Source of the DNA: Nitrospinota bacterium
Lineage (GTDB): Bacteria > Nitrospinota > Nitrospinia > Nitrospinales > VA-1
Assembly (NCBI GenBank): GCA_038108555.1
Contig: JAYNIA010000003.1
Location: 70,381 to 134,380, forward strand
DNA: 64,000 bases
Reading direction: 5' to 3'
Made by a program: the position numbers and the translations under genes. This document shows, piece by piece, positions 6,225-22,233 of this stretch (positions are counted from its first letter, which is position 1; each line of letters opens with the position of its first letter). Under the pieces are notes generated by a model. It was not told the DNA's origin and did no database searches. It saw only the letters and a program-made list of their open reading frames with translations.

Positions 6225-6686
6225 TTATATTGTTGCAATTGCTTCCTTTTGAAATAAGACTGTAACAATAATTTTATCCCCCGGATTACCGGAACCCACT
6301 TGTGAGAATTTCAAACCCAATCGATCACTAATTGAAAATACAACTTTTGTAGAAAGCGAAGTTTTTTCATATTGATTCCCATCAGTCAATGTCGCTTCAT
6401 TATTTTGTGCTATAGAGTTTTTTAATATATCAATCTTAAGGTCCTGCCCTGTGGGAGGATTGAGAGAAAAAATTCCTATGGCCCGAACTGCAATTGTTTC
6501 TTCAGGAACAAATCCATCAAAAAAAACCGTTTCATCAATGGCAGGACCATGAACGGAAAGGGTAAAACAAAGGAGGCTCCCCAAATCGTCAACGGCATTG
6601 GCAAATTCTGTATATTCGGTCTCCCAGTTCAAATCCCCGGCACCGGGTATGGGAAGGTTTAAATTGTTGGTGAAAGTGTTAGCCAT
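6225..6686 (-). CDS. Putative small tail fibre / tail tip protein
   Basis: N-terminus (TNNLNLPIPGAGDLNW) resembles phage fibre attachment segments; last gene of the tail module. Confidence 0.5.
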   Translation of the reverse strand: MANTFTNNLNLPIPGAGDLNWETEYTEFANAVDDLGSLLCFTLSVHGPAIDETVFFDGFVPEETIAVRAIGIFSLNPPTGQDLKIDILKNSIAQNNEATLTDGNQYEKTSLSTKVVFSISDRLGLKFSQVGSGNPGDKIIVTVLFQKEAIATI

Positions 6687-6721
6687 TCATTGCCTCCTGA
6701 TATTGGTATTTGTATCGTCCT

Positions 6722-9616
6722 TTAATTTCTTTCCAGGCCTGCAAAACCACTGGTACCAAATTCCTGCAATCCAAACCCGGCATTGCCAATAAATCCACCC
6801 ATTTGTCTGGCAAAAATTTTTATTGAATCCATCCTATTTTCAATTCCAGAACCCACGACTCTTTCCGATCCAAGAACAAGTGCCCTAATATTTTGAAGCT
6901 CATGAGTAGGTGGATTTATTTCAATGATGTCCCCTTTTTCTATTTCCATATTGTCTAGAAGCAGTGAAATTTCATAAACATCCCTGGGTTCCTTAAACTC
7001 ATGTAAATAAAAATTTCCAATATCTTTGGCCATGGGTTGGTCCCGGATCCAGTTAAAGTCAAACCCGTGGGGATTTTCTTTAATTCCAAATTTTTTTTGG
7101 GACTCCATATCAAATAAATTTTCAACCGCCTGAAAATTATCCCCTACCCAGTTTCTTTTAAACTTGAGAACAATATAGTTAACAACATTACTAACCGGGT
7201 TACGCTTTGCCTTGAATCCAATTACCCCATTGGGATCAATTAAAACCATATTGTTGGGAATAATTTTGTTTATAGCCGTTTCTGTTGTAGAAAAATTTAA
7301 GGGGCGAAATAAAATTTTTGCCTGCCCAAGGTCCCAGTAAAAATAAGCCCGGCATTCCTTCCCCCATTGTTGCCACAACTCCTGGTAGGAAATCTTTTCC
7401 TTCAAAATACCCGCAAAGGAGTAACCCGAATTTTCAAACAAAACCCCAGCCTGATCCATGAAAGTAGCATCAATGTTAGAGGAATCCAATCCCAACCCTT
7501 GAACCAGAGACCATTTATAAACATGGTCGGGACGCTCGATCAGCGAATTTTGGACTCCGGTAATGCTTCCCGACAAGTCATCTTTAACCCCTTCAATGGT
7601 AGCGGAGACATTATCGGTAAATTCAATTCGTCTTCTTGCATATTCTATTTCGTAAGCCAGATGAACGATGAAAGCAGTTCTTCCATCACTTGATCCGTTA
7701 TATTGAATCTGACTCTCCCGGTTTTTAAACCAGGCCCAATCTCCATTCACATGGGAAGAAATATCAATTAAATCAACAACACTTCGGGTAGCTTTTTCAG
7801 CAGTAGAATTTACAGAGGGACTTGAAGAGTGAGCGGTTATTTCTCCTGCCTTTGAAGTAAAAGTATTTGTTGCTTGTGAAGAAACCGAATCGGGGGTTGC
7901 CATGGTAATAACCCGGGTGGCTGATCGAATATAAAAACTAATAAAAGTAGTATTGTGGCTAATTACAATTGTATTGCAGGCGTTATTAATGTTTCCCCCG
8001 GTGGTATAGTTCTGAGCGGTTCCGCTTATGGACCAAAGCTGATAACCGAACGATCCGTTACATTGCGAAGTCGCAGATACTGCCTTGAAAGATCCACCTG
8101 ATGCTGTTCCAGTCCATTCAAAAGCGATTCCATATTCTGCGGTATCCCAAGTACCCGGTCCCGGATCAGCGAAAGTAATAGTATGTGTTTGACCCGACGA
8201 CAATGATATTACCTGCCCGCCTACACCGGATAATGCATTCTGAGTAATCTTTTGCGGGTTAGCTTCTGTATGTTGATGTTCCGGATCGCTGATAGGAAAC
8301 CCCAATGTGTCCAAATGAGTATGAGTGATATCCGTCGTACCGCTTGCCACAATGACATCATCAACAGCGGGAGGTGACAAGGTTCCCACCTGACCGATAC
8401 CAGAAATATGTGCAGTTAAACTATCATTGGGTAATTTTTCCTCAACAAAATGCTCGACCCTTAAAAATACTTTTCCAATTTCCCCAATTCTGGGCAAATC
8501 ATCCGTTTGATTTAAAGAAAGTAAATTATTGTTCTGGTTGATTTTTGCATAATTTGTAGGGCTATTGGGTATGGCAGCATTTATGGGATCAACAGCATTA
8601 TTACCCGTGCCTACCTGATCGTTTTGCACCTGAAGGAATTTGGTGTCAATGGAATCCGATTTTTTAGGTTTGGAGCTGAAAACCACTTCTCCCAGATTTA
8701 CATCCGTCACATAATCCAGGGGGTCGGCAAGATGCCCATCCACTTTCACATTGGAAATTTGTTTTATGGGAAAGGCAGGGTCACTGAATAAATAGCGATG
8801 ATCTGAGACTTTTTCCAACACGGAATCATCCGCGTAATGAAACTCATTAATCCCACTGCATCCCAAAAACTGGGTTGAATTGATACTTGAATAATTAATT
8901 TCATCATCATTGACTATTAAAGTCCCCGAAGGAGGGAAGTTCTCAGTCGAGGCCACGGTTAAAATCGTGCCTCCTGGAATAGCCACTGAAGTTAAAATTG
9001 TTTTTTGGGATTTTCGAACTAAAACGCCGGGGGCATTATCAATATTCCCAATAACAATAGGTTTGGTTTTTCCCAGTGAATTTTCCGGAGCATTTGGATA
9101 GTCACTCAGATTGATGGAATTCCCAATAATATTCGCCCCATAACTTTCTGAAATATCGATTAAATCAAAGGAGCAAATGGATTCATCAAAATTAACAGGG
9201 TCTCCTATACGAGCCACGAAAATTTCTGCAAAATCTGAACTCGCTAAACCTTCACCATCAAACCATTGGTAAATCTTAACAATTGCCGATTCAGGAGGAC
9301 GATGGCGGAACAAATTTGAAAACCTTTTACCCGAACCAATGAAATTTACAGGCGTATTGACAAGTTGAACTGTTAAACTACTTCCGGAATTGTTTGACAA
9401 AATATCGGAGGAAATCAGCCTGTCAATATTACCCATATCCTTTACTAAGGGAAACCAATCAACTCCATCGATATTTATTCCATCCCGATCTGTCAACCGC
9501 AGTTGCAGGGCTGGCAGCCCATTTATTTCTGGCCAATCTATTTGCATGAGATTAACCGGAGCATTCGCTTTTTTGTTTCGGGCTGCATTTAAACCTGTTG
9601 TAAAATCCGTTCTCAT
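6722..9616 (-). CDS. Large tail tip / baseplate hub protein (964 aa)
   Basis: Position after tape measure and Dit-like gene; GKTKPIVIG hub-like motif; central Thr/Ser/Gly-rich beta region. Confidence 0.7.
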   Translation of the reverse strand: MRTDFTTGLNAARNKKANAPVNLMQIDWPEINGLPALQLRLTDRDGINIDGVDWFPLVKDMGNIDRLISSDILSNNSGSSLTVQLVNTPVNFIGSGKRFSNLFRHRPPESAIVKIYQWFDGEGLASSDFAEIFVARIGDPVNFDESICSFDLIDISESYGANIIGNSINLSDYPNAPENSLGKTKPIVIGNIDNAPGVLVRKSQKTILTSVAIPGGTILTVASTENFPPSGTLIVNDDEINYSSINSTQFLGCSGINEFHYADDSVLEKVSDHRYLFSDPAFPIKQISNVKVDGHLADPLDYVTDVNLGEVVFSSKPKKSDSIDTKFLQVQNDQVGTGNNAVDPINAAIPNSPTNYAKINQNNNLLSLNQTDDLPRIGEIGKVFLRVEHFVEEKLPNDSLTAHISGIGQVGTLSPPAVDDVIVASGTTDITHTHLDTLGFPISDPEHQHTEANPQKITQNALSGVGGQVISLSSGQTHTITFADPGPGTWDTAEYGIAFEWTGTASGGSFKAVSATSQCNGSFGYQLWSISGTAQNYTTGGNINNACNTIVISHNTTFISFYIRSATRVITMATPDSVSSQATNTFTSKAGEITAHSSSPSVNSTAEKATRSVVDLIDISSHVNGDWAWFKNRESQIQYNGSSDGRTAFIVHLAYEIEYARRRIEFTDNVSATIEGVKDDLSGSITGVQNSLIERPDHVYKWSLVQGLGLDSSNIDATFMDQAGVLFENSGYSFAGILKEKISYQELWQQWGKECRAYFYWDLGQAKILFRPLNFSTTETAINKIIPNNMVLIDPNGVIGFKAKRNPVSNVVNYIVLKFKRNWVGDNFQAVENLFDMESQKKFGIKENPHGFDFNWIRDQPMAKDIGNFYLHEFKEPRDVYEISLLLDNMEIEKGDIIEINPPTHELQNIRALVLGSERVVGSGIENRMDSIKIFARQMGGFIGNAGFGLQEFGTSGFAGLERN

Positions 9617-9641
9617 ATATTTTCCTAACAGAAAAATGCAT

Positions 9642-9959
9642 TCAATTTATTGCGTTATGGCCTAGTTTCATAAACTCGAGCTTGTCATCCAACGTCATGG
9701 ACATGGAATTGATTCTTTCATCTATATCTTCCCTTACACGTCTTTTCAGGATTTCCATCAATTTTTCTTTCCAATTTTCTTGTTGACGGAGCTGCATATA
9801 GAAATCTGATCGGAGGGTTATGGATTTAACAAATGCCAGGCTGCCATCCTTAAAAAATACACGTACTGGAAAATTTTGACGCTGACCTATTTCCTGAATT
9901 TCCTCTACATCTATTTGAAACGAAAAATCCCCGGGAGTGCAGTTCTTCCAATCCAACAT
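9642..9959 (-). CDS. Hypothetical protein within the tail operon
   Basis: 105 aa ORF, AGGAG RBS, tightly spaced with neighbours. Confidence 0.6.
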   Translation of the reverse strand: MLDWKNCTPGDFSFQIDVEEIQEIGQRQNFPVRVFFKDGSLAFVKSITLRSDFYMQLRQQENWKEKLMEILKRRVREDIDERINSMSMTLDDKLEFMKLGHNAIN

Positions 9960-9968
9960 CTTTATCTC

Positions 9969-10349
9969 CTATTGTTTATGCAATTCTATCGAACCTGAGT
10001 ACTTTCCAAATACAACCAACTGAAAATCAAAAGCGTTCATCCATCTGACCGTGTGGAGGTTAGCCTCCCTATCTTCAAATTCAAAAAGCTCAAATGACTT
10101 TTTAACCGTTTCAAAAAAACTCAATGCAGCATTCCGTTCGCTTTGACTTATATTGCTGAATAAAAACAGGAACGTTTCACGCTTTACCCCTTTTTCCTGA
10201 ATATAGATAGTCCCACCAGAAGTAACAGCCTTAATCTGTTCAGGAAAGTCAACCGGTTCAATGGCTGGATAATCGGGCATTTTTGTAGGAACCCATTGAG
10301 CTATCGGGGATACTTTTGTAGGAAAATAAAAACCAAAACTCATGAACAA
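9969..10349 (-). CDS. Putative distal tail (Dit-like) protein
   Basis: Directly after the tape measure gene; size and aromatic beta pattern (FEFED...HTVRW) typical of Dit-like proteins. Confidence 0.55.
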   Translation of the reverse strand: MFMSFGFYFPTKVSPIAQWVPTKMPDYPAIEPVDFPEQIKAVTSGGTIYIQEKGVKRETFLFLFSNISQSERNAALSFFETVKKSFELFEFEDREANLHTVRWMNAFDFQLVVFGKYSGSIELHKQ

Positions 10350-10441
10350 ACTCCAATTAATGCTATCCGCTTGCGAGTAAAAGGATTAAAACTATTTTTT
10401 CTGGATGGAGCGAAGGAAAGGTTGATTCTAAAGTTTAATAT

Positions 10442-11206
10442 TTATTTTGATCTTCTTCTTTCAAGGCGGCGCAACTCATCCTGCAATTGAACGGCAAGCT
10501 GGCGAAAATTCTGTCGACTCATGTTGGAAGGGCTCACAGAATCAGGAAGATTTAAATTGATATTTACATTTTTAATTGCCATTCCGGTGGTGTTACCCAA
10601 CCTTCTTTCTTCAGCTTGGGTTTTATTTAGAACGGCTTCATCTTTGTATATTATTGCCAACATATCCCTGGGAACGCGGTCAATCCCAGTGGAAAACGCC
10701 TTTAATGAGCCAAAAGTATCAAATCCCCCGGGGTTGACTGAAGTCCCATCAAAGGCACCTGGGTTTGCTGAAGATTCGTCTTTATCTATATCAAAATCAC
10801 TATCGTTTGAACCTTTAGAGCCAATTTTTTTAACTTTTATTTTTTGAATAATGGGCTTTGAAAAAGTTTTTTCGATTTTCTTTCGAATTTCCAAGGCCTC
10901 TTCTGTTGCTTTATCTACCAATTCAAGGTGTAGCAAAAATGGATTTTGAGCTTGAAAACTCCTCAATAACACTTCGATCTCCCTCAATTGATCGCGAACA
11001 TTTGGAGGTAAAATTTGAAACTCAATTGGTTCGGCGTTTTCTAGATCTTTTAATAAATCAGCAATTACTTTAAATCCTTTATCATTTTGAACGCGATTAA
11101 TCCCTTCCAATGCCTTTTTGTAGTTTTCAAGGGATTTTTGGGCTGATTCAGTAAACTGATCCTCAAACCTAACAACAATTTTAGTGTTTACAGTTGTTGA
11201 AACCAT
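10442..11206 (-). CDS. Short tape measure protein (254 aa)
   Basis: Follows the chaperone pair; N-terminal IVVRFEDQFT; helical middle; C-terminal FSTGIDRVPRDMLAIIYKDEAVL motif typical of tape measure C-termini. Confidence 0.7.
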   Translation of the reverse strand: MVSTTVNTKIVVRFEDQFTESAQKSLENYKKALEGINRVQNDKGFKVIADLLKDLENAEPIEFQILPPNVRDQLREIEVLLRSFQAQNPFLLHLELVDKATEEALEIRKKIEKTFSKPIIQKIKVKKIGSKGSNDSDFDIDKDESSANPGAFDGTSVNPGGFDTFGSLKAFSTGIDRVPRDMLAIIYKDEAVLNKTQAEERRLGNTTGMAIKNVNINLNLPDSVSPSNMSRQNFRQLAVQLQDELRRLERRRSK

Positions 11207-11232
11207 AAAGAAGTACCAGAAATCATTTAATT

Positions 11233-11502
11233 TTAATACGGTTGCGATTTATTTAATCGAAAATTATCCATAAAAGCCATTGCTTTCCATTCAAAAATAC
11301 TTAGATCATTCTTTTCGAAAGGATATCCAGCCTTTTTTAGCAAGTACATAGTTTCCAGAGTCCCGACCCATGTTCGAAATTCATGAGGGTAGTTTTCAAG
11401 AATTTTTTGTGCCGGATGATTCAGGATATTCCATTCGGGGTTTTCAGTTTCTTCATAAACACGGCTTAAAAATTTCTGATACGCTACTTCCAGTTCCGGC
11501 AC
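11233..11502 (-). CDS. Tail assembly chaperone, frameshift extension (T part of gpGT)
   Basis: Lies in the -1 frame of the upstream ORF and stays open back through the slippery site at 11526-11535. Confidence 0.7.
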   Translation of the reverse strand: MPELEVAYQKFLSRVYEETENPEWNILNHPAQKILENYPHEFRTWVGTLETMYLLKKAGYPFEKNDLSIFEWKAMAFMDNFRLNKSQPY

Positions 11503-11522
11503 ATTTTCCTGAAAGTAGCCTA

Positions 11523-11918
11523 CTAGTTTTTTAAAACAGCATTTTCCATTTTTCCATTCACCCCCTCAAAAACCAGAGCTGCAGCATGCTTAAAGGATGG
11601 CAACACAAATTTTTTCCAATCAGGGGTTTTGGGGGTTAAAGGTTTTTCCATGCCCTTAACTGGGTCTGTAAAAACGGCTTCTCCAATATTGCCCTCCTTA
11701 TCCTTTACTTTTATATCCAGCAGCAACCGGTCAATAAAATCGATGCGCGCTGAGGAAGAGTGATCTTCCATCAGGTTTCCAGAGGTTCCAAATTTAAATC
11801 TCGATCTTAGAAAATTACAATATTCTTCCGATGTTGAGTTTCTTAGAATCAGAAGGACTTTAATTTCACCATAAGGGATTTCTATGTTTACAGTCCCGGG
11901 GTTAAGATTTACTTTCAT
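11523..11918 (-). CDS. Tail assembly chaperone (gpG-like)
   Basis: Between tail tube and tape measure; ends GTT TTA AAA AAC TAG. Confidence 0.7.
   Translation of the reverse strand: MKVNLNPGTVNIEIPYGEIKVLLILRNSTSEEYCNFLRSRFKFGTSGNLMEDHSSSARIDFIDRLLLDIKVKDKEGNIGEAVFTDPVKGMEKPLTPKTPDWKKFVLPSFKHAAALVFEGVNGKMENAVLKN
11526..11535 (-). other. Programmed -1 ribosomal frameshift site
   Basis: T TTA AAA AAC contains two overlapping X XXY YYZ heptamers; the -1 frame reads LVGYFQENVPELEVAYQ into the next ORF. Confidence 0.8.
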
Positions 11919-11935
11919 CCTGGCCTCTCCATTGA

Positions 11936-12979
11936 TCAGCTTAAATAATGAGTTTGCTGGTTAATTATTTTTACAATCACCGATCCATATGTTTCATCTT
12001 CCAACACCTGAAATTCGGCATTTACAGTAACAATATCTCCATCTCTATCTTTCTTTGCTTCTTTATAAACAACTTTTGGGAAAACAATGTCACAGGAAAA
12101 ATTAAAAGTCCCCGATCCGCCTGATATAACCGACCCGGTAATGGGAATATTTAAAACATATGGGGTACCATTAATAAGTCCTGTTTTATGGGAGTCGTCT
12201 TGCATCTCCAATACAGCAGACAGACTCTGCTTGTATTTGTCACCACGTTCAACTCGCGATACAAAACCGCTTCCATCTCCCATTTCATAAATGGGATTTG
12301 CCTGATTATCAATAGTCCATTCAAAAGACTGTAAGTCTCCCTGAAACGAAACCGGTGAACCCCCTACCGAAAGATCCCCTGCTGCAACGGAACCTGTGAG
12401 AGAACCGCCGCGAGTAAAATTCACATCGCCGTATCGGAGGTAAGATTCTCCGACAACCGTGGGTTTTAAATCAGAACTGAATTCTTCTTTTCCCATCCCT
12501 CCAAATTGAGCTTCCAGCTTTACAAAATCTCCCCTTTCACCACTTACTTTTACGGACTTGCCAAATAACCCGGTAAACCGTTTTGCTGCTATTCCATCAT
12601 ATTCCACCATTGTCAGCGAGGGCAGGTTGATGTTATCCAAATCTCTTTCTATAAAATGCCGGTAAACGGTTGGATCATTGATATTATCCGGTTGATCTGT
12701 GGTCACCTTTCCCATAACCAGGGAAAGAAAATGAGCCAGGTTGTGGGGCATGGCGCGTTGTTGGTGACTTCCATCTAACTTCCAATTCAAAATTTCCTGG
12801 ATTGCGGGTTCATTGAGCCCCGTTACCTCATTTTCATCAGTTTGAACTTCATTTGGATGAAGATCGGTAATGGGCCCTTCAAAATTGAATGCTGTTCCCA
12901 GGGTAGCTGTATTCCCATAAGAAGATTCTTTAATTATAGAAAATACGCGCCACCCAGTAGTTATTCTTTTGGTTGCCAT
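11936..12979 (-). CDS. Major tail tube protein (siphovirus-type)
   Basis: 347 aa; KESSYG N-terminal motif, beta-rich; position between the terminator and chaperone genes; no sheath gene present. Confidence 0.75.
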   Translation of the reverse strand: MATKRITTGWRVFSIIKESSYGNTATLGTAFNFEGPITDLHPNEVQTDENEVTGLNEPAIQEILNWKLDGSHQQRAMPHNLAHFLSLVMGKVTTDQPDNINDPTVYRHFIERDLDNINLPSLTMVEYDGIAAKRFTGLFGKSVKVSGERGDFVKLEAQFGGMGKEEFSSDLKPTVVGESYLRYGDVNFTRGGSLTGSVAAGDLSVGGSPVSFQGDLQSFEWTIDNQANPIYEMGDGSGFVSRVERGDKYKQSLSAVLEMQDDSHKTGLINGTPYVLNIPITGSVISGGSGTFNFSCDIVFPKVVYKEAKKDRDGDIVTVNAEFQVLEDETYGSVIVKIINQQTHYLS

Positions 12980-13036
12980 AAAATAATCCTCGAACTGTAT
13001 AGGAAGAACATCCTTCCCTTATTATTTTTTGAATTA

Positions 13037-13507
13037 TTAGAAAGAGGAGATTAATTCTATTTGTGCGGTGATCGTCGAAATAAAATAATAATATTCACCT
13101 TTTTTGAATTGTTCCTCCGTGGTACTTACATTATTGACGAAGGCATCTATTCCCAAGTTATTTGTTGAGCTTTTTTGTTTTTCTAAAACTCGTTCAATGT
13201 TTTGAACCAATGAAAGGTTATCCTCCATCCCCATTTGTGCGTTTCGATGCCGGGTTATTGCAACCACCTGAGCTGAAACTGTTTCTTTTATTTCATTGGT
13301 GGTTTGGATTTCCTGCTGCTTCCCCTCTGAATTTGGCAAAATCGCCAGGGCAGGTAGGTCATTAGGAGCATAGAAAAGAGAATCTTTTTCATTTTGGATT
13401 GAAAACCCGCGTTTAAAAGTTTCTATGGTTTGAACGTTATTGGTTATCCATGGATCGTTTTCCAATGTGGTTTTGATGCCATTCGCTAAAGCTGCATAAT
13501 CAGTCAC
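13037..13507 (-). CDS. Putative tail terminator/completion protein
   Basis: Position immediately before the tail tube; 156 aa; DLPALAILP motif. Confidence 0.55.
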   Translation of the reverse strand: MTDYAALANGIKTTLENDPWITNNVQTIETFKRGFSIQNEKDSLFYAPNDLPALAILPNSEGKQQEIQTTNEIKETVSAQVVAITRHRNAQMGMEDNLSLVQNIERVLEKQKSSTNNLGIDAFVNNVSTTEEQFKKGEYYYFISTITAQIELISSF

Positions 13508-13524
13508 AAATTTTCCTCCAAAAG

Positions 13525-14007
13525 CTAAATTTGCTTTGTTCCAAATTCTTTTTTAAGAGCCTTTTCCATTTTTGTTTTGGCCTGAAGTGAAGCAGTTTCA
13601 ACTGCATTTCCCAAAACTCTAAAAGGGGGTGTGCCAGGATGGTTGAATTGTTTTACAGGATGCTTGGCCCCCGGCCAGAACAAATATTTCTTTTTCCTGG
13701 CTCGAATAATATGAGGTCGGCTTCCAAATTCAAGAATTGGAGCGATAGGAGAATTGCTTTTCAAATATCCAGTAGAAAAAGATAGGGCATCTCCTTCTAT
13801 AAATTCAGAATGAATAGATTGAAAATATTTTCCCGTTCTCATTCTGGGTTTTTTATCCTGGGAAAGAATTCGTTCCTTTGCAATACTTTCAGATTGATTT
13901 ATTAACATGCGACCCATTTCTCGGGCTGCATTTTGGACCCCAAAGGACAAACTCTCTAGCCATTTCCATAATCTTTCAAAGGATTTTATTTTATTATTAA
14001 TGAACAT
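13525..14007 (-). CDS. HK97 gp10-like neck/tail component
   Basis: RTGKYFQSI, APILEFGSRPH, HPGTPPF motifs. Confidence 0.75.
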   Translation of the reverse strand: MFINNKIKSFERLWKWLESLSFGVQNAAREMGRMLINQSESIAKERILSQDKKPRMRTGKYFQSIHSEFIEGDALSFSTGYLKSNSPIAPILEFGSRPHIIRARKKKYLFWPGAKHPVKQFNHPGTPPFRVLGNAVETASLQAKTKMEKALKKEFGTKQI

Positions 14008-14015: not shown

Positions 14016-14651
14016 TTAGAGCTGGACTAATCGATAAGGTTCCCAGAGCATCTTAACCAATGGTGGAAGAGGTATTCGGTTCATTTCCAATAACCCCGGG
14101 GTCGATTCATCGGATTCAAATAGTTTGGATTTATTGGAAAAAATAAGTTTTATCCAATGCAGCATTCCCTGTTTGATTCCTTCTGGAACATCGCTTACTA
14201 AAGATCCGTAGCCAGAAACAAACTCAATTTCAACGGAGCTAAATTTCCTAAGGCTTGTAGGCCAAGAACTATTTTCATTTAAGGCTATCCTTCCAGGAGA
14301 AGGAGCCGTATCGACAAAATAGTTTTCCGCATCAAAAACAGAAGCAATATTTCCCGTATCGTAGGTCTTGATAAAAACAACGGATTGAATGGGTGGCCTT
14401 GGGATAACAATTATTCGCTCATTCAAATTGCCTGACCTGCCTTCACATCTAAAAGGAAGATGGTCAAGCCATAGTGTCCAAGTTTGGGTAATAAAGGATC
14501 TTCCGGTCCATTCTTCAGCCCGTTGGCGAACCGCAGTAATCATCGAAGATATTAAGTCGTCATTGTTTCCATCATCAATCCGCAGATGATTTTTCGCTTC
14601 CACCAATGAAACCGGTTCAATAGAAGGTTGGGTTTTTATTTTTAGAGCCAT
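14016..14651 (-). CDS. Head-tail connector/adaptor (gp6-like)
   Basis: EPVSLVEAKNHLRID...AEEWTGRSFITQTW...GYG...VPEGIKQGML...PYR. Confidence 0.88.
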   Translation of the reverse strand: MALKIKTQPSIEPVSLVEAKNHLRIDDGNNDDLISSMITAVRQRAEEWTGRSFITQTWTLWLDHLPFRCEGRSGNLNERIIVIPRPPIQSVVFIKTYDTGNIASVFDAENYFVDTAPSPGRIALNENSSWPTSLRKFSSVEIEFVSGYGSLVSDVPEGIKQGMLHWIKLIFSNKSKLFESDESTPGLLEMNRIPLPPLVKMLWEPYRLVQL

Positions 14652-14666
14652 AATTTGTTGATCAAC

Positions 14667-14861
14667 TTATTTTCCGGTTTTTGTTCTTTTATTTTCTGGA
14701 GCTTTTCCCAGATTTTTAGATTGAATCTTTTTTGCCCAGCGTTTGCGAAGAAAAACCTTGGCCAACTCTTCTGGAAGATCAACGGTATCTTCTGCGCAAT
14801 AGGTGAAAACAGAGATACCATCGGGGGAACCCTGGCGAGTTTTCAACATTTTAATTTTCAT
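14667..14861 (-). CDS. Small phage head-associated protein (64 aa)
   Basis: Small ORF between capsid and adaptor genes with the KAPENK motif often seen at this position. Confidence 0.55.
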   Translation of the reverse strand: MKIKMLKTRQGSPDGISVFTYCAEDTVDLPEELAKVFLRKRWAKKIQSKNLGKAPENKRTKTGK

Positions 14862-14885: not shown

Positions 14886-14912
14886 TTCCTTTCCCAGAAA
14901 ATGGGAAAGGAA
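14886..14912 (-). terminator. Stem-loop after the capsid/decoration genes
   Basis: TTCCTTTCCCA-GAAAA-TGGGAAAGGAA perfect 11-bp inverted repeat; weak U tract. Confidence 0.45.
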
Positions 14913-14922
14913 CTAAGGAATA

Positions 14923-15300
14923 TTAATTAACAGGTGCCAAGTGAGGAATGCCGCGAATTATCATCGCGGCGACCTGGGCACCGGTTGTAGCGCCGACAAC
15001 GGTTAACACCGCTCGCAGGTAGCGTTTGCTTCCCTTGTATCCAACGCGCTGATTGGTATTAGAAACCAGGTCCACCAAAGACCCTTCCTGGTCATTGGCA
15101 TTGACATCGTTCCAGTTGGAATTATCATCGGATTCCTGAATCTTTGGTGTATGAGTACCATCCGTGACCGTACCAACACTAAAAACTATGGCCGAGGCCC
15201 GGAAATCCCTGATATCGACCCCGGCACCATTTTCATCTGCAATATAGTCATCAGGATCAATTGAATTGATCGCATCAAAATTGTTTTTCATATCTTTCAT
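14923..15300 (-). CDS. Putative capsid decoration/cement protein
   Basis: Directly after the major capsid gene; IQESDDNSNW and GYKGSKRYLRAVLT motifs typical of jelly-roll decoration proteins. Confidence 0.65.
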   Translation of the reverse strand: MKDMKNNFDAINSIDPDDYIADENGAGVDIRDFRASAIVFSVGTVTDGTHTPKIQESDDNSNWNDVNANDQEGSLVDLVSNTNQRVGYKGSKRYLRAVLTVVGATTGAQVAAMIIRGIPHLAPVN

Positions 15301-15346
15301 TTGATTCTCCGTTATTTTTTTATGTATTTTTCCTTCAAAAAAACGA

Positions 15347-16543
15347 TTAGGCAGCAGTTTTCTGAATTGCGAAGGCTTCGAAATTCGTTACATCGCCCCC
15401 GGTGCGCTTCGTTGTATAAAATAAAACGAAGGGTTTTGAACTAAAGGGATCTCGAAGAACCCGCAGTCCCATTCGGTCCACAATGGTATAAGCCTGACTG
15501 AAATCACCGAAGGCAACGGACAAAGAATTTGGGGCAACCTGAGGCATATCCTCCATGCGTTCAATGGCATGACCCAATAAAGTTTGAGGTTCGCCTTCCT
15601 GAAATCCTGGCTGCCAAATATATGAACCGCTGGAATCTTTGAGTTTGGAAACTTCTTCGATCGCACTTCGAGACATCAACCATTTGGCGTTGGGTACGTA
15701 GGGACTTTTTAAAGCATAAAACAAAGTTCGCAATCCGTCGGCGGTCAAGGAGCTGGCATCTCCTGTATTGATCTGTTGAACTTCCCCTGGATTATTTGTT
15801 CCCCCTGCATAAGTGAGAATTCCCCTTGGTTTTCCAACTCCGTCACCGTTGATATAAGAAGCGTTTTCTATGCGTGACATTTTGTCCGCAATCTTCATGG
15901 ATAACCACATTTCAACATCAATTCGGGAATCATCTAACAAGGTTTGCGTGGCCTTTGGCATAGCATATAGTTCGTGGACCGGAATCCGACGAACTCCAAT
16001 TTTTGGGGTATTGGTTTCGGTTCGTGCGGCCCGTTCACTGGTCCACCCGCTGTCTGCTTCGTTTAGATCTTCCGGGATTTCAAGTGCATCCGTGGAGATC
16101 GTTTCCACCGTTGCAATATTACGCATGGGCGAAGTTTCAAAAACTTTTTGAATGGCATGCTCTGAAATTTCCGGGGTCATCCAATAACCTCCATCCGGAT
16201 CGCTATCAGAGGAAAGTAATTTCACCTCCTCTGCAGACAATAGTCCCTCCCCTTTACGCAGATAATTCGTAATGGCCTGTTTTCTGGTTTGAGAAAGTGG
16301 ATCCGAATTTTTTGTTTCATCCATAGCTATTCCCGGACGACTCAATTTAGTTTCAACTTTCTCTATCCGCTCCTTAACCTCGCTCAGATTTTGGATTTCC
16401 TTTGCAATCCGGTTGACTTGTTCCTCTAAAACAGGGTCGGCATATCCCTTTTTCTGAATTTCAGATAGACGTTGGTCATTCTTTACCCTATGTTCCAAAA
16501 ATGCCTGGTTCAGCTCTTCAACAAGTTGCTTTATTTCTTCCAT
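15347..16543 (-). CDS. HK97-fold major capsid protein
   Basis: N-terminal coiled-coil delta domain, DGGYWMTPE, GDGVGKPRGIL, FGDFSQAYTIVDR, LRDPFSSKPFVLFYTTKRTGG. Confidence 0.95.
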   Translation of the reverse strand: MEEIKQLVEELNQAFLEHRVKNDQRLSEIQKKGYADPVLEEQVNRIAKEIQNLSEVKERIEKVETKLSRPGIAMDETKNSDPLSQTRKQAITNYLRKGEGLLSAEEVKLLSSDSDPDGGYWMTPEISEHAIQKVFETSPMRNIATVETISTDALEIPEDLNEADSGWTSERAARTETNTPKIGVRRIPVHELYAMPKATQTLLDDSRIDVEMWLSMKIADKMSRIENASYINGDGVGKPRGILTYAGGTNNPGEVQQINTGDASSLTADGLRTLFYALKSPYVPNAKWLMSRSAIEEVSKLKDSSGSYIWQPGFQEGEPQTLLGHAIERMEDMPQVAPNSLSVAFGDFSQAYTIVDRMGLRVLRDPFSSKPFVLFYTTKRTGGDVTNFEAFAIQKTAA

Positions 16544-16663
16544 ATTGAACTCTCCTTAAAAAAGAAACCCCCGCCAGACCTTCCATGAAATGCCATATAT
16601 AATAATGAACCTTTTCATTATTTTTGGCCCAAACGAGGGGAATAATAGTTAATTTCTAATAGA

Positions 16664-17350
16664 TTATGAGGCTTTTACTGTACTCAATAACTGGTGAAGG
16701 GAGGCCCTTAAAACTTCAATTTCCCTGGAGTTTTCGGCTTCAACAAAGTGGGGTTTTCCCGGCCCATTTTTGCTGTTAACAAGAAGGGATTTTAAGTTGT
16801 GGATAGCTAATTCTGTTTGTTTGTGATCCATTCCAACCGCATTTTTCAAAAACTGGCCGATCATTTCTTTTTTCCCTTTGACACTGATAACCCCTGCGTG
16901 TCGATTCATGGGAAAAGTAACAACGCTATATTCGAGAAGTTGGATCTCTTTTAATCGGCGGACTTCAGGACGGTGGTGATCCGCCTCTTCTTTGATTACG
17001 CGAAAGCCAATAGACAACCCCGTTTTCCCGCCAATATTTTGAGCCATTTTCATGAGACTATGGCGTTCCCTAGCTGCGGTCACATTAAGGTCAAGTAAAC
17101 CTCTAACAAATAAACCGCGGTCATCCTCATAGGCTTCTACGTTCCAACCAATCTGGCGGGTGGGATCGTGGTGGTCGAGAATAGGGAATCGGCCCTTATT
17201 CTCTGTCAGTGTTTTTTTATAAGCGCCTTTTTCCACCACGTCGCCACCCAGATCAATAGATCCAAAGGTAGAGGCATACCCACAAAACTCACCAGAATCA
17301 TTTATTGCATCCATTTTGAATGGAAACGATTTAAACTCTTTCATAGTCAC
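16664..17350 (-). CDS. HK97-family prohead protease
   Basis: FCGYASTFG, DHHD, GLSIGF, EYSVVTFPMN. Confidence 0.93.
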   Translation of the reverse strand: MTMKEFKSFPFKMDAINDSGEFCGYASTFGSIDLGGDVVEKGAYKKTLTENKGRFPILDHHDPTRQIGWNVEAYEDDRGLFVRGLLDLNVTAARERHSLMKMAQNIGGKTGLSIGFRVIKEEADHHRPEVRRLKEIQLLEYSVVTFPMNRHAGVISVKGKKEMIGQFLKNAVGMDHKQTELAIHNLKSLLVNSKNGPGKPHFVEAENSREIEVLRASLHQLLSTVKAS

Positions 17351-17355
17351 CTTCT

Positions 17356-18540
17356 TTAAATAGAAAAGTTTTGCAAACGGGGAACCAATTTATCCCCTCC
17401 AGGCACATCATCGAATCCGACCATCCGGCGTTTTTCATTCAAAGTTAAAAAATCACTTTGATTCACACGATTCCATAAAGCCTCCTGGTCTTCAGACAAG
17501 GCTTCAATACCATCTTTATTGAAATCCAAGAAAAGGTCTTTACCGAATCGGGGAACCAGCCAATTGTTAAGCGCATCGCGTAATCGATTCAAGAAAGGAC
17601 AAACGACTTCTGTGTACAAAGCTTTCCGTGCTTCTTTACGGTTTTGATAAGTTGCCGGGCCCAAACCTATCAACTCGGGAGGTACGTTATAAACCTGAGC
17701 AACCTGCAGGGCGCTCATTTTTAATCCTTCAATCCAATCCATATCTTTTGGAGAGATACCCAACTCTTTCCATTCCAGATCCTGTTCCAATAACAAAGGG
17801 TCCCTGGCGTTATTCACTCCTTGTATCTGCCGACGCATTTCTGATTTCAATCGTTCAAACTGTTCATCGGTCAACCGTTGCTTGCAGGTCAAAGCCCCGG
17901 AGGGAACCGCCGCATTTTGTAGTAGCGACGCATTCCATTTGTCACCATTGTTTAATTTATCAATGGCTAAAGCTGCTACCTGTATTGGTGATAAACCATA
18001 CCAATCGTCCAAAGGATGAAACAATTTGAGATGAAGAATCCGTTCCGGCGAAAATTTTACCTTCCGTCCGGATACCGTATACTCGTACCCACCTACAAAA
18101 TGTATGGGATCAGGAATCACCCTCATTCGATCTGGACGCAAGGTATATAGTTCTTTGGGAGGGCTATTATGAGGTCCGATACATTCCAGATAAGCGTTGC
18201 CGGACAAATAGAAAAAGCTGGCAACCGATTCCACCCATTCAAATTTTCCCTGCAATGGATTAGGCCTTTCCATTAGATCTAGAATAGGATGCTGCAAAAC
18301 TTCCCGGCGTTCGCCATTAGGCAAATTACGAAATAGCAACCAAGGAACACCCGCAACAGCTGAGGAAATTTCTTTCACACAAGAAAATAGAACACTATTT
18401 TGTGTGAACCCTTCTTTGGCTAAAATTTCGTAATCCGTCTTGGGGGAAACTCCGTGTCCTCCAGGCAACCACAACGTCATGGCGCGGGTGGCGGTACTAC
18501 CTTTTTTTCTGATTCTTTTGAACCAATCTATTAATTTCAT
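17356..18540 (-). CDS. HK97-family portal protein
   Basis: PNPLQ, GNAY, LRPDRM, HPLDDWYGLSP, PSGAL, NVPPELIG, LTLNEKR. Confidence 0.95.
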   Translation of the reverse strand: MKLIDWFKRIRKKGSTATRAMTLWLPGGHGVSPKTDYEILAKEGFTQNSVLFSCVKEISSAVAGVPWLLFRNLPNGERREVLQHPILDLMERPNPLQGKFEWVESVASFFYLSGNAYLECIGPHNSPPKELYTLRPDRMRVIPDPIHFVGGYEYTVSGRKVKFSPERILHLKLFHPLDDWYGLSPIQVAALAIDKLNNGDKWNASLLQNAAVPSGALTCKQRLTDEQFERLKSEMRRQIQGVNNARDPLLLEQDLEWKELGISPKDMDWIEGLKMSALQVAQVYNVPPELIGLGPATYQNRKEARKALYTEVVCPFLNRLRDALNNWLVPRFGKDLFLDFNKDGIEALSEDQEALWNRVNQSDFLTLNEKRRMVGFDDVPGGDKLVPRLQNFSI

Positions 18541-18589
18541 AATTTTAAAAAACTAATATGGGAGAAAGAAAAACAAAAAAATATCCTTC

Positions 18590-19375
18590 TTAAATAACAG
18601 CAGCTATACCGGTTGGATTTGCAAACGATGAGCTGGTGTATTTTGTGTTGGGAAATTTATGTTGAGGACGCCCTTCTCTATCAATTAAAACAATCCAATC
18701 TTCTGGCTGATAGTAGGTGACCCAATAAAACCCGTTCGAGGGATCATAGGTAATCCCTTGCAACGAAGTAGGAACTGGATCCAGCTTTTCCAGGGTAACC
18801 GAATGGATAAAATTCATACCCAGATCAAAAACAAACAGGGAGTTAAAAAAATTATCGGTAATGATAATTCGTTGAAGTACCGGATCGATACACAAATCCT
18901 GAGGGCTGGCCAATCCTGATGTTGATAGATCAAAAGTCTGGATCAAACTGCCATTTCTTTGGAGATGATAAAGGTTGAAGGATGTGAGTCCGTCCGATAT
19001 TAGCCAAAGAGTAAAATCCCATGGATCAATGCAAATACCTTCAATTTGAGTTGCGGAAGGGTCGAATTGATCAATCCCAAAAGAACTTATGGGAGAACCA
19101 TTTTGGGAATCAATATTCCAAACACGAATATCGGTCGATGTTCCGCTGCTATTATTTTCGGTAGAAACCCATAGAGAATTATCCGAAGGGTCCAATGCCA
19201 ATCCATCAGGAGGTGGATTGACAGGAGAAAAAACGCTGGAGGGGATAGAGTTTCCTATTTCATTTCCCCATTTATCGACCTTAAAAATCTTTCTTGCATC
19301 GCTTGAAATTATTAAGGATCCGTTTAAAAATCTATTATTTGATACAATGGGTGACAGGCTTGAAGATTTAATCAT
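18590..19375 (-). CDS. Beta-propeller repeat protein, putative head spike fibre
   Basis: Repeats GLALDP / GICIDP / DLCIDP / GITYDP / PTGIA; start overlaps the stop of the spike-base gene. Confidence 0.55.
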   Translation of the reverse strand: MIKSSSLSPIVSNNRFLNGSLIISSDARKIFKVDKWGNEIGNSIPSSVFSPVNPPPDGLALDPSDNSLWVSTENNSSGTSTDIRVWNIDSQNGSPISSFGIDQFDPSATQIEGICIDPWDFTLWLISDGLTSFNLYHLQRNGSLIQTFDLSTSGLASPQDLCIDPVLQRIIITDNFFNSLFVFDLGMNFIHSVTLEKLDPVPTSLQGITYDPSNGFYWVTYYQPEDWIVLIDREGRPQHKFPNTKYTSSSFANPTGIAAVI

Positions 19376-19671
19376 TACTCACCTGCCAAATAATCGCCCG
19401 CAGATGACCCCGCTGAATTGGTACCCACTCGCACCCAAAAACCTTTTGCTTCAAACCCAACGGGACAATTTTTAAAAATTACAATTTCTCCCTCAACATT
19501 CTGCACTTCAAGATCACCTGCAACTCCACAATAAATAACGCGACAAACCCTGGAAAGAGGGTTTACTGCATGTGGCGTTACTGTTTCCCAATGCACAGGT
19601 GGACTTTCCAATCCCTGCTGGGAATATTTATCTTTCCAACGGCTGGACGCTAACAATATGTCTTGGGGCAT
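19375..19671 (-). CDS. Head spike base protein, RcGTA GhsA (rcc01079)-like
   Basis: GLESPPVHWETVTPHAVNPLSRVCRVIYCGVAGDLEV matches my recollection of the GhsA pattern (LESPA...ITPSD..DL....RAL.V..GG.L); not database-verified. Confidence 0.65.
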   Translation of the reverse strand: MPQDILLASSRWKDKYSQQGLESPPVHWETVTPHAVNPLSRVCRVIYCGVAGDLEVQNVEGEIVIFKNCPVGFEAKGFWVRVGTNSAGSSAGDYLAGE

Positions 19672-19699
19672 ATTATCTTCCTTTCATATCCGGAAATTT

Positions 19700-21292
19700 T
19701 CAGGTTAATCTTCTAATTCGTGGACCAGACAACCCTGAGTTAATCAAATTAAAAAACATTTCCAGAGCATCGGGTCCGTCATCGTGATTGGCTTTGGGGA
19801 AATATTTCAATTGATCCAACAACAAGGTCTGGTTTTTTCGAAATCGAATCAATCCATTTTTAATATGAGGTTGCAATTTTGAAATCCTCAAAATTTTATC
19901 GTTAATGGGTCTCACCCCTTCGACTGGAGGATAAATTTTCCTTCGTGCTCCTTCTTTAATTACCTGATCTTTAAACAATTGTTGAAACTGTACTTCCTCA
20001 ATGGCGATTTTTTCAAAGTGATACTTTTTTTGATATTCGAACAGGGTTTCCATTATTGAATCAGGATGGCGTTTTTCAATATCAGCTTGAATAATATCGA
20101 TGATGCCATCGGGGTTTACACAACCTACTAATATTGCAGATGGGTCTGCTTTTTTAGATGCTGACCCCATGGAAGGATCAACCGCGCAGTAGAAATGACT
20201 GTTTTTGTCTAAAAAAATTGGTTCCGGAATAAACCGAAACCATTCTTCCTGAAAAAGACAATCATCAGGGTTAACCGGTTCATTTTGCTTCTCTGAATCA
20301 AAATAGGCAGGTCCATCGGAAACTCGCATCGTCATCAAAAAGTAATACGATTCTGCTTCGGGCCAGAGAACTTTTGTTCCCTCTAACATTTCGATTTTAT
20401 GTTTATCAAAAAACCTTTTTGCTCTGTTCTCCGCATCAACAACTCTGGAAGTAAAAAGTGATTCCCATTTTTCCCAAAGTTTTGAAGAAGACCATTTGAT
20501 TACAGCTTTCCACTTTTTACCATGCCAACCCGGCCTGACTAATAATCTTGAAAGTAAAGAGTCGTAATGAAGAATTGTTCCCACCACTATGAAAACGGTA
20601 GAGCGACCTCCAATTTTCATTAGGGCTTTAAAAAACCATTTACGATCTTTTTCACGTTGGTCAGGGGAATCAATATTTTCATCATCTTCCAGGTCATCGC
20701 AAATAACAAGATCAGGTCTCCGGTTTCCATGGCGTGCGCCTCGAAACCGTTTTCTTTTTCCACAACTGCGAACAGCTACTCCATTTTTCGTAACAATTTT
20801 TGTGGCCTTCCAAGTTCTACCCGAACCACAAACCTCTGGGAAGTCCTCTATCAACCTTTCATTCGCTTCAAGTTCAACTTTAATCTGCTCCAGAAGCTCT
20901 TCTGATTGGTCGGAGGTATCAGAAACTAAAACAATAAATTTTTTTCTTAATCCGACAATGCACCAAAGGGGTAAGATTAAAGAAGAGAGTGTTGATTTAG
21001 CATTGCCGCGGGGAGCGGCCAAAGCTTCTTTACTTCCTTTGCCGGAAACTTGCGATTCAATTATTAGCTGGCCAAATCGTTTGAACATTTCCTCATGCAT
21101 TTGGGAGCATTTTTCGGTCAGGTGATGCGGGAAATAATGTCTGGCAAAAAACTTCAAGTCTTTTAGAGCTTTTTCTTTGTGTTTTTCTTTTTGTTTATGG
21201 CTCCTTTTATTGAAGGGTTTGAGCTTTTCTTTAATTTTATTTCCTGTTGCCTCTTTTGGCCTTTTGCTTCTAATTCCTGGTAATCCCACCAT
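19700..21292 (-). CDS. Terminase large subunit
   Basis: Walker A AAPRGNAKST, Walker B VICDDLED, VVGT motif III, nuclease AVDPS and HDDGPDAL. Confidence 0.92.
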   Translation of the reverse strand: MVGLPGIRSKRPKEATGNKIKEKLKPFNKRSHKQKEKHKEKALKDLKFFARHYFPHHLTEKCSQMHEEMFKRFGQLIIESQVSGKGSKEALAAPRGNAKSTLSSLILPLWCIVGLRKKFIVLVSDTSDQSEELLEQIKVELEANERLIEDFPEVCGSGRTWKATKIVTKNGVAVRSCGKRKRFRGARHGNRRPDLVICDDLEDDENIDSPDQREKDRKWFFKALMKIGGRSTVFIVVGTILHYDSLLSRLLVRPGWHGKKWKAVIKWSSSKLWEKWESLFTSRVVDAENRAKRFFDKHKIEMLEGTKVLWPEAESYYFLMTMRVSDGPAYFDSEKQNEPVNPDDCLFQEEWFRFIPEPIFLDKNSHFYCAVDPSMGSASKKADPSAILVGCVNPDGIIDIIQADIEKRHPDSIMETLFEYQKKYHFEKIAIEEVQFQQLFKDQVIKEGARRKIYPPVEGVRPINDKILRISKLQPHIKNGLIRFRKNQTLLLDQLKYFPKANHDDGPDALEMFFNLINSGLSGPRIRRLT

Positions 21293-21621
21293 TGCTGGAT
21301 AACTTTTTCTTCAATTTTTTCGACGTGATCCCCTATTAAGTGAGCTGCTGAAACTTCTTTGTTTTCAGCTAAATAAACCGCAACTGTTTGAAGAGTTTCT
21401 GAAAGCAGTTGCATGGGGTCTATCTTCCCGGTTTGGATTTTAAGTTTGAGTAAATCCTGGATTTTTCCAATATATGCACAATAAACACGGTGGTTTTTCA
21501 AATCGTCAGGTGATTTTTTAATCAGTTTCTGAACTACCTTTTTATTTTCCTCCAACTCATTTATCAGCCTTGATAAATCCGATAATTCACCATTTAAAAC
21601 TTTAAGCGATCTTGTTGTCAC
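21163..21621 (-). CDS. Putative terminase small subunit (helical; no obvious N-terminal HTH)
   Basis: Directly upstream of and overlapping TerL; AGGAG RBS; helical/coiled-coil sequence. Confidence 0.5.
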   Translation of the reverse strand: MTTRSLKVLNGELSDLSRLINELEENKKVVQKLIKKSPDDLKNHRVYCAYIGKIQDLLKLKIQTGKIDPMQLLSETLQTVAVYLAENKEVSAAHLIGDHVEKIEEKVIQQWWDYQELEAKGQKRQQEIKLKKSSNPSIKGAINKKKNTKKKL

Positions 21622-21967
21622 TTACATTCAAGGCTCCTACAATTTGATTTACCGATTTATTTAGTTCATTAAGCTGTTTAAAAATCCTTGAAATAAGTCC
21701 CTCCGTTTTACCCACGGCAATATAAAAAGCTTTTTTTTCTACATATTGCTCAAAGTTGTATTTTTGATCGCTTTGCCTGGTTTTTTCCAATTCACGAAGG
21801 AGGTTTTCCATTTCTTCCAGATTTTGTTTTAGATCATTCAACCTTCTATTATTTTCTCCAATCATCCAGCGAACAAACCATCCAAGGGTTCCCAAAGTAA
21901 ATAATGCGAAAAAGGTCAACCAGGGGGTTAAAGTTCTAAATAGCTCCAGGGACATATGGAATCTCAA
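21602..21967 (-). CDS. Membrane-anchored coiled-coil protein
   Basis: N-terminal TM (WLTFFALFTLGTLGWFV) followed by heptad-like coiled coil. Confidence 0.6.
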   Translation of the reverse strand: MRFHMSLELFRTLTPWLTFFALFTLGTLGWFVRWMIGENNRRLNDLKQNLEEMENLLRELEKTRQSDQKYNFEQYVEKKAFYIAVGKTEGLISRIFKQLNELNKSVNQIVGALNVSDNKIA

Positions 21968-21999
21968 AAAACGGAGTGTTATTAATAGATTTTTTTCAA

Positions 22000-22233
22000 T
22001 TAGGAGTGAGGAAAATTTACTTTTTTCACGACCTCATGGATTACCTCTTCCTGATTATTTTTTATAGCAGCCCTTAAAGTTGAAAGCCCCACTGCCTCCA
22101 AAACCCATGTCATCGAGTCACTGGATACAAACTCATGAAGGGAAATATTACCGGTGGAAAAATTTAAAAATGATATGAAAAGCATCAAAACTGAAGTGAG
22201 ATAAGTCTTTCTTCCCTTTAACCAGTCCATCAT
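22000..22233 (-). CDS. Holin-like small membrane protein
   Basis: WLKGRKTY + TM, second hydrophobic segment ending GLSTLRAAI, charged tail; first gene of the operon. Confidence 0.55.
   Translation of the reverse strand: MMDWLKGRKTYLTSVLMLFISFLNFSTGNISLHEFVSSDSMTWVLEAVGLSTLRAAIKNNQEEVIHEVVKKVNFPHS

Follow-up and report, generated by a model that had tools for sequence, protein, structure and literature searches.

A 64,000-nucleotide stretch of the genome of a Nitrospinota bacterium (contig JAYNIA010000003.1, assembly GCA_038108555.1; this whole stretch is called the window below) carries, at positions 6225 to 22233, a cluster of phage-derived genes that probably constitutes an independently domesticated gene transfer agent (GTA)-like element of the Nitrospinales. 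The locus itself is real, ancient, under selection and derived from a phage: 22 uninterrupted genes on the minus strand, read from 22233 to 6225 and mostly spaced by less than 60 nt, start beside dnaA and encode a terminase of transposable-phage type, a head resembling that of the Rhodobacter GTA (RcGTA) and a non-contractile tail. A first-pass annotation had described about 20 co-oriented genes for packaging, head, neck and non-contractile tail, a description borne out by PHROG, Pfam and NCBIfam scans, which assign the terminase, portal, protease, capsid, adaptor, neck and tube. The genes are listed here in order of transcription, followed by the regulatory block to their left and by dnaA; f1 to f4 denote families of the phylum survey described below.

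22000..22233, minus strand: 77-amino-acid membrane protein, probably a holin; the structural operon starts with this gene (position and hydrophobicity; no family match)
21602..21967, minus strand: 121-amino-acid membrane/coiled-coil protein of the type preceding the terminase in Mu-like phages (weak PHROG matches)
21163..21621, minus strand: small terminase of 152 amino acids, without N-terminal helix-turn-helix and with a basic C-terminal tail (profile search, hhalign)
19700..21292, minus strand: large terminase, transposable-phage (D3112-like) type (phrog_38, E 4e-115)
19375..19671, minus strand: head spike base protein, RCAP_Rcc01079 family, 98 amino acids (NF048002, 43.3 bits against a cut-off of 28)
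18590..19375, minus strand: NHL-repeat beta-propeller (PF01436), probable head fibre
17356..18540, minus strand: HK97-type portal (PF04860, TIGR01537; best PDB match the RcGTA portal, E 2e-77)
16664..17350, minus strand: prohead protease (PF04586, TIGR01543)
15347..16543, minus strand: HK97-type major capsid protein (PF05065, TIGR01554; best PDB match the RcGTA capsid, E 1e-74)
14923..15300, minus strand: probable capsid cement/decoration protein (phrog_5707, E 1.5e-22; weak Bbp16 match, E 0.02)
14667..14861, minus strand: conserved 64-amino-acid protein (tblastn matches in clusters of f1, f2 and f4)
14016..14651, minus strand: head-tail adaptor (TIGR02215 above cut-off; phrog_442)
13525..14007, minus strand: neck/tail-completion protein (phrog_5, E 8e-10)
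13037..13507, minus strand: probable tail terminator, by position only (no informative family or structure match, profile included)
11936..12979, minus strand: tail tube protein, non-contractile (PF18906, E 6e-12; phrog_290)
11523..11918, minus strand: tail assembly chaperone, its gene closing with a slippery site for -1 frameshifting (about 11526-11532)
11233..11502, minus strand: frameshift extension of the chaperone (frame runs on from the slippery site; conserved in relatives)
10442..11206, minus strand: short tape-measure protein, 254 amino acids (position; no family match)
9969..10349, minus strand: probable distal tail protein (40-49% identical to proteins that come after the tape measure in Mu-like prophages; weak PHROG hints)
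9642..9959, minus strand: 105-amino-acid tail-tip protein (homologues in Mu-like prophages)
6722..9616, minus strand: tail-tip hub/central fibre, lambda J- and T5 pb3-like, 964 amino acids (AlphaFold pLDDT 73.5)
6225..6686, minus strand: 153-amino-acid tail-associated protein, last structural gene (homologues ahead of fibre genes in relatives and in Mu-like prophages)
5786..6208, plus strand: single-domain response regulator (PF00072), directly downstream of the repressor
4831..5724, plus strand: CI/LexA-like XRE-S24 repressor with intact self-cleavage site (PF00717 and helix-turn-helix)
4759..4814, minus strand: sigma-70 promoter, -35 at 4814, with a palindromic putative operator (4791-4804) between -35 and -10
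4108..4533, minus strand: 141-amino-acid cysteine-motif protein, candidate activator (no family)
3762..4166, minus strand: sigma-70 region-4-like DNA-binding protein, candidate late activator/antiterminator (phrog_3512)
22611..24059, plus strand: dnaA, a host gene divergent from the operon, in the probable replication origin region (PF00308)

The phage-derived structural genes are fixed and vertically inherited, and genes for their own replication, excision or integration are missing from the locus, which is what is expected of a GTA. Family scans found no integrase, transposase, replication gene or endolysin there; no att pair was found, the repeats around the locus being at chance level only, and the tRNA nearest to the cluster lies at 31569. 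These absences had already been noted in the first-pass annotation. The three tyrosine recombinases of the genome all lie away from the locus, two of them XerC/XerD-like by context, and no serine recombinase was found in the genome. The earlier remark on ribosome-binding sites and tight spacing held for the spacing and only in part for the sites, a simple ribosome-binding motif preceding 11 of the 21 starts tested. Promoter and terminator counts at the cluster are at chance level. Its GC content is 0.40 and that of the genome 0.43; the seven long cluster genes have codon scores between the 61st and 99th percentiles of 1537 long frames.

Housekeeping genes had been placed on both sides of the cluster. 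This is correct on the dnaA side; at the left end a regulatory block (3762-6208), made up of the response regulator, the XRE-S24 repressor and two divergent genes, stands between the cluster and etfB, and it travels with the structural cluster in relatives. The start of dnaA lies about 400 bases from the first operon gene and is divergent from it, and the cumulative GC skew turns at about 22-24 kb, so that transcription of the operon probably follows the leading strand, with the origin behind it. Genomes that lost the cluster also keep conserved blocks upstream of dnaA, which are therefore not signals of the cluster. In the window, dnaA is followed directly by gyrB and gyrA (22611-26893) with no dnaN or recF between them, as it is in the relatives read. 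The host belongs to the Nitrospinales, as judged from GyrA cluster members and terminase homologues named Nitrospinota, Nitrospinales or Nitrospina, in agreement with the initial impression that it was not alphaproteobacterial.

The cluster is a vertically inherited host locus under selection. In 15 genomes, trees of the cluster proteins and of dnaA, gyrB and gyrA (FastTree; the host alignment is partial for several genomes) have 9 of 12 splits in common, against a mean of 0.3 and a maximum of 3 for random trees; the three conflicting splits are short branches. A quick IQ-TREE run placed 17 cluster portals in a single group with support 85, and the subgroups of this group match f4, f2 and f1 with support 92, 96 and 94. 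In three unsaturated same-genus pairs, head, neck and packaging genes have a ratio of nonsynonymous to synonymous substitution rates (dN/dS) of 0.033-0.196; dnaA has 0.044 in the one pair having that gene. Tail genes, compared in more distant and partly saturated pairs, give about 0.04-0.34, and the f2 pair G028-G037, near saturation, gives 0.14-0.45. A stop or frameshift interrupts a core gene in 5 of 41 loci. Synteny, tree congruence and dN/dS, here well below 1, had been put forward at first reading as checks on the idea of a domesticated, host-encoded element, and all three support it.

The survey sample consisted of 120 genomes of the phylum, searched with the capsid, and the locus was fetched in all 41 positives (25 of the 57 genomes that are at least 90% complete). 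Besides the present genome, the capsid was matched in 27 of 69 genomes of f1, 9 of 21 of f2 and 4 of 5 of f4, and in none of the 6 of f3 or the 18 of five other families. All carriers belong to one order, and the capsid is nearly always present as a single copy. In 33 of the 41 the start of the cluster directly adjoins dnaA, a count that includes G051 (adjacency across the record start) and G034 (a deletion remnant only). As for the other eight, the contig ends too early to show the dnaA side in G003, G068, G075 and G090; G027 is split, having its terminase genes next to dnaA and its head genes apart from them; in G030 and G033 the cluster is relocated, the head lying at a different site and the terminase on a separate contig; and G070 has an orphan capsid. 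When the dnaA flank was read in 16 capsid-negative genomes, dnaA was found to abut etfB directly in four (G002, G007, G009, G015), pieces of both cluster ends were retained in three (G010, G017, G025), and the regulatory block was retained in four from f3; four of the remaining flanks have other genes and one contig ends at dnaA. This pattern of loss points to the presence of the cluster in the ancestor of the order and its repeated deletion since. A genome-collection scan with a single terminase gave one match, which was unrelated.

The packaging genes are of the transposable-phage kind. The large terminase has its best phage matches in DMS3, MP38 and JBD30 (41-43%), and 11 residues of its ATPase and nuclease motifs are invariant in 21 of 21 cluster copies. 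The small terminase gene overlaps the start of the large one. A profile search with its 152-amino-acid product collected 49 proteins, eight of which, at 175-192 amino acids, have about 65 extra N-terminal residues that AlphaFold models as three short helices; in the family alignment the cluster proteins begin at the coiled coil and end in the basic tail. Genes located upstream of transposable-phage terminases align with this family from end to end (hhalign 98%, E 1.4e-13), and of those 27 genes 10 match DUF1804 and 9 match HTH_23. This link to named phage families goes through intermediate homologues: the cluster small terminases alone align only in their C-terminal part, and weakly (E 0.008), and a direct profile comparison with DMS3-24 is not significant (probability 0.5%). 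A structure search with a full-length homologue returned generic coiled coils only, ESM Atlas led from the 152-amino-acid protein to small-terminase families, all below 0.9, and a metagenome scan with the full-length small terminase P0140 gave no match. The full-length small terminases P0140, P0144 and P0159 may be partners of the terminases P0039, P0059 and P0070, to judge by contigs of the same length.

In transposable phages the terminase cuts, by headful, into host DNA that flanks the inserted genome; a terminase of this type would therefore suit a GTA role. The RcGTA small terminase likewise has no N-terminal DNA-binding domain, which is proposed in the accessible sections of PMC6854486 as the basis of random packaging; loss of the helix-turn-helix is proposed there as a mark of GTA small terminases. 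By analogy, the Nitrospinales particle would package host DNA. In six relatives, the first gene under the repressor-controlled promoter encodes an SbcC/Rad50-like coiled-coil ATPase of 640-830 amino acids with weak AAA_23 and LmuB matches (L029:3639-5870, L040:8074-10329, L081:4174-6084, L090:3797-6037, L089:4983-7475 and L102:6593-8887). This ATPase, which was not found in the present genome, might process DNA ends for packaging.

The portal and capsid had been likened to those of RcGTA in the first-pass annotation, and the RcGTA proteins are indeed their best matches among solved structures. The likeness takes in the adaptor, the head spike base and a small terminase without a helix-turn-helix. 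Because related heads are also found in free phages, the likeness of the head reflects kinship and not orthology; the best INPHARED phage match of the capsid is at 46-51%. A laminin-G protein takes the place of the NHL-repeat propeller in another genus. The further claim that the architecture is of RcGTA type throughout did not survive, since the terminase, lysis genes and tail tip are related to those of transposable phages and only the head is RcGTA-like. The host phylum differs, the terminase is nearest to transposable phages, and the tail has a PF18906 tube and a lambda J-like hub where RcGTA has its DUF2460, hub, NlpC and megatron set. Family scans matched no DUF2460, hub, NlpC/P60 or megatron family at the locus. 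Nor do the lysis and regulatory genes lie elsewhere, as had been supposed by comparison with RcGTA: the repressor and its neighbours adjoin the cluster, and in several relatives so does an endolysin. On this gene content the cluster appears to be a chimera with an RcGTA-like head and not a member of the RcGTA family. Among the fetched loci an RcGTA-type baseplate set was seen only in G036 (L038:35-6127), where the native tape-measure start is joined to a DUF2460, hub, NlpC/P60 and megatron-like series; the DUF2460, hub and megatron-like copies of G036 had no match in the present genome.

The lysis and tail genes resemble those of Mu-like elements. Homologues of the probable holin come after an M15 endolysin in relatives and in the Mu-like prophage of G069, and the 121-amino-acid protein has a 29% homologue ahead of the terminase genes in the Mu-like prophage of G048. 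An M15 peptidase is the first gene of the operon in G021, G067, G069, G071 and G107, and by position also in G020, G022 and G017. A GH108 endolysin had no match in the present genome, in a search without a positive control. In the tail, no sheath gene is found at the locus. The slippery site of the chaperone gene is an A-run followed by C and a stop codon in 7 of 7 copies inspected, and the chaperone pair presumably acts in the manner of lambda G/GT. The tape measure is mostly 330-390 amino acids long in relatives, and its C-terminal domain is common to the tape measures of 650-1050 amino acids in Mu-like prophages. The best Foldseek matches of the hub model are the tail tips of lambda, DT57C and T5 (E 4e-13 to 1e-10, with low TM-scores); the 126- and 156-amino-acid cluster proteins had no informative structure match.

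Two further features of the tail region were seen in relatives. The genes for tape measure and chaperone change place or are duplicated inside the cluster (L024, L031, L026, L080, L029, L109); in one example, terminase and portal have a short tape measure between them. In many copies the tape-measure gene is immediately preceded by antisense genes, often arranged in tandem, for small zinc-ribbon membrane proteins (L019:15094-16241, L021:16933-18477, L024:8545-9120), which are possibly exclusion or immunity genes.

Casadabanviruses of the D3112/DMS3 type and the Mu-like prophages of the Nitrospinales share with the cluster the large terminase family, a DUF1804-related small terminase, the order of genes from lysis to terminase, and the tail-tip genes. 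Complete Mu-like prophages in G025, G048 and G069 have lysis and tail-tip genes 25-50% identical to those of the cluster. The hub of the G069 prophage is 80% identical to the cluster hub of the same genome and nests among the cluster copies, and tail-tip exchange with Mu-like phages appears from this to have continued. In contrast to these phages, the cluster has no transposase, GemA or Mor at the locus, has an HK97 head and occupies a fixed chromosomal site. Of 73 viral contigs recovered by means of a close terminase (P0039), not one matched an HK97 portal or capsid; a Mu portal was matched in 22, and GemA, Mor or a transposase in 44. The closest free-looking relative is the 7264-base IMG/VR contig L229, with an M15 endolysin, a full-length small terminase and a portal extension, and with a terminase 59% and a capsid 61% identical to those of the cluster. 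Its portal is sister to the cluster portals. Twelve viral-database contigs with a capsid of at least 65% identity are short stretches in cluster gene order in the fetched part; IMG/VR contigs L201-L212 and L214 are likewise, in the fetched part, fragments of the chromosomal cluster.

The regulatory block has the makings of a damage-responsive switch. Residues Ala181-Gly182, Ser217 and Lys254 of the repressor are invariant in 26 of 26 copies, and the promoter and its palindrome are kept in 18 of 18 intergenic regions from four families; the putative operator is the second-best genome-wide match of a matrix built without the present genome, and a weaker operator-like site lies at 4759-4772. This combination of a cleavable repressor and a conserved operator suggests induction by DNA damage. 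That the repressor might be the SOS regulator of the host was considered and rejected, as a separate LexA is encoded and no regulon appears among the top 25 matrix matches. The response regulator stands beside the repressor in many carriers. The 141-amino-acid protein has 22 invariant columns across 22 copies and no usable family in ESM Atlas, and Sigma70_r4 was matched in 8 of 17 homologues of the neighbouring gene. The regulatory genes are predicted to control the structural operon, because the two are linked and frequently lost together; the retention of regulators without structural genes in f3 calls for caution on this point.

A comparable arrangement is described in Caulobacter, where, in the available text of PMC9632790 and PMC11150451, the LexA/cI-like RogA acts over a two-gene gafYZ operon, one product of which carries a helix-turn-helix resembling that of sigma factors, and the genome producing the Caulobacter agent (CcGTA) has no recognisable endolysin. 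The likeness is one of arrangement only: a repressor facing a two-gene candidate activator operon, and no endolysin recognised. RogA, as presented in the same text, lacks the cleavage residues that the cluster repressor keeps in all copies, and the switch of the cluster adjoins its structural genes.

These observations indicate the following history, and would fit the mode of action described after it. A phage that combined lysis and terminase genes of transposable-phage type with a head of HK97/RcGTA-like kind and a short, non-contractile tail became established next to dnaA in a Nitrospinales ancestor, lost its replication and transposition genes, and has since been passed on as a host locus. 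As the cleavage triad and operator suggest, RecA-type DNA-damage signalling would cleave the CI-like repressor and free the promoter of the cysteine-motif and sigma-region-4 genes, whose products would switch on the structural operon. With a small terminase lacking the sequence-reading domain, heads would, on the RcGTA model, be filled with host chromosome and no fixed sequence. The cell would be lysed through the holin and, where present, the M15 endolysin, and the particles may inject their DNA into related cells, which could use it as a template in recombination or repair, as the Caulobacter and Rhodobacter systems suggest.

Several observations weigh against a GTA. Neither an M15 endolysin nor a phage lysozyme was found in the present genome, which is 92% complete, and none of 16 other genomes of the same genus was matched by the M15 query. 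All eight non-remnant f2 copies are without neck, tube and tape measure, the adaptor being followed directly by tail-tip genes; the tube family was found genome-wide in none of four f2 genomes tested, the f1 control being positive. A head-closure gene was recognised in no copy. In the terminase tree, two terminases from outside the known clusters nest among cluster copies, and because one of these, from L229, falls among f1 copies, the cluster terminases do not form a clean clade. The cluster is often lost or reduced: 79 of the 120 genomes have no capsid match, and deletion remnants lie beside dnaA in G010, G017, G025 and G034. The four f3 genomes that retain the regulatory block without structural genes belong here as well, and the regulators may have other targets.

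Purifying selection, finally, would also fit a defective phage that was domesticated and retained to kill competitors or to interfere with other phages, as a decoy or in the manner of PBSX, in which transfer would not be the selected role even if host DNA were packaged. PBSX of Bacillus subtilis is a defective prophage with an XRE repressor that is induced by DNA damage, packages host DNA and kills with a contractile tail; the cluster resembles it in being a conserved phage-derived element with an XRE repressor, and differs in its non-contractile tail and unrelated structural genes. A damage-type switch with lysis genes, a tail tip of the same family as that of the hosts' Mu-like prophages (80% identical in G069), and the persistence of tube-less copies in f2 would all suit such a role. 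However, the hallmarks of a tailocin or PBSX-like particle are not seen: there is no contractile sheath, and the terminase, portal and head, which a tail-only weapon would not need, are complete, intact and under selection. Six window proteins tested also gave no defence-system match beyond generic helix-turn-helix domains. We regard this explanation as unlikely, if worth keeping in mind.

It is distinctly improbable that the cluster is a resident helper, supplying particles to a Mu-like element or satellite with its transposition genes elsewhere. The transposable-phage terminase invites the idea, and the same genome does carry a Mu-like prophage of which the left end is present, truncated where the contig stops (G000:C62:9761-12932, L110), with a repressor, a small gene, a 635-amino-acid transposase and the start of the next gene; no second terminase was found in the assembly, nor a Mu portal, in a search without a positive control for the portal. 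However, the Mu transposase family occurs in 12 of the 120 genomes only, away from the cluster where inspected. Since it is present in 7 of the 41 capsid carriers and was not found in the single-contig carriers G018, G037, G051 and G092, a Mu-like element is not a required partner. The complete prophages of G025, G048 and G069, moreover, have their own Mu heads and a different terminase.

Still less probable is the idea of a prophage remnant in slow decay, which is protected by its place at the origin and has ceased to produce functional particles. Frequent loss, remnants, shuffled gene order and insertions inside the cluster would suit it, as would the broken core genes in 5 of 41 loci and the loss of tail and endolysin genes in whole lineages, but the proteins remain 60-90% identical at near-saturated synonymous sites with dN/dS mostly below 0.2, and catalytic residues, frameshift signal and operator are conserved across families. 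The remotest explanation, repeated recent integration of an active phage family at a dnaA hotspot, could draw on the same terminase-head combination in the phage-like L229, but there is no integrase or att site, the viral contigs with close capsids are short stretches in cluster order, and the congruence of the cluster and host trees largely refutes it.

A domesticated GTA-like element is accordingly the reading that we prefer, and a bolder version of it can be put forward quite tentatively. The cluster may be a GTA that evolved independently and is ancestral to the main order of marine nitrite oxidizers, driven by a transposable-phage motor that lost its sequence-reading domain convergently with RcGTA, placed at the replication origin and fired by DNA damage; throughout one family it may have lost tube and tape measure and become a working particle of head, adaptor and tail tip only, and it may still trade tail-tip and terminase genes with Mu-like phages of its hosts. 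Elsewhere in the window (42445-43956) lie three tandem genes for small proteins of 133-138 amino acids, cyclic-nucleotide-binding-like by eye.

No description of this element was found in the GTA, phage and prophage literature on Nitrospina and Nitrospinota, in a search that lay mostly within openly available journals. In the sections available, PMC8026999 mentions phage-related genes in variable regions and does not mention GTA, capsid or terminase, bioRxiv 2022.02.18.481119 treats GTAs of Alphaproteobacteria only, and bioRxiv 2024.02.28.582576 holds nothing relevant to the element. The host group comprises the most abundant known marine nitrite oxidizers (PMC8026999, in its accessible part). 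Few independent GTA lineages are recognised, and discovery from sequence is the stated bottleneck of the field, according to the available portion of PMC6854486.

The candidate is testable, since capsid records exist under the names of cultured or enriched strains, among them Nitrospina watsonii, Ca. Nitrohelix vancouverensis and Ca. Nitronauta litoralis. Cluster fragments in viral databases may inflate counts of 'Nitrospina phages'. If the element is a GTA, it would be a second independent case of the proposed rule that a phage becomes a GTA when its small terminase loses the DNA-binding domain, and the mosaic of keepers, losers and tube-less keepers within one order would provide a natural test of how such elements are maintained.

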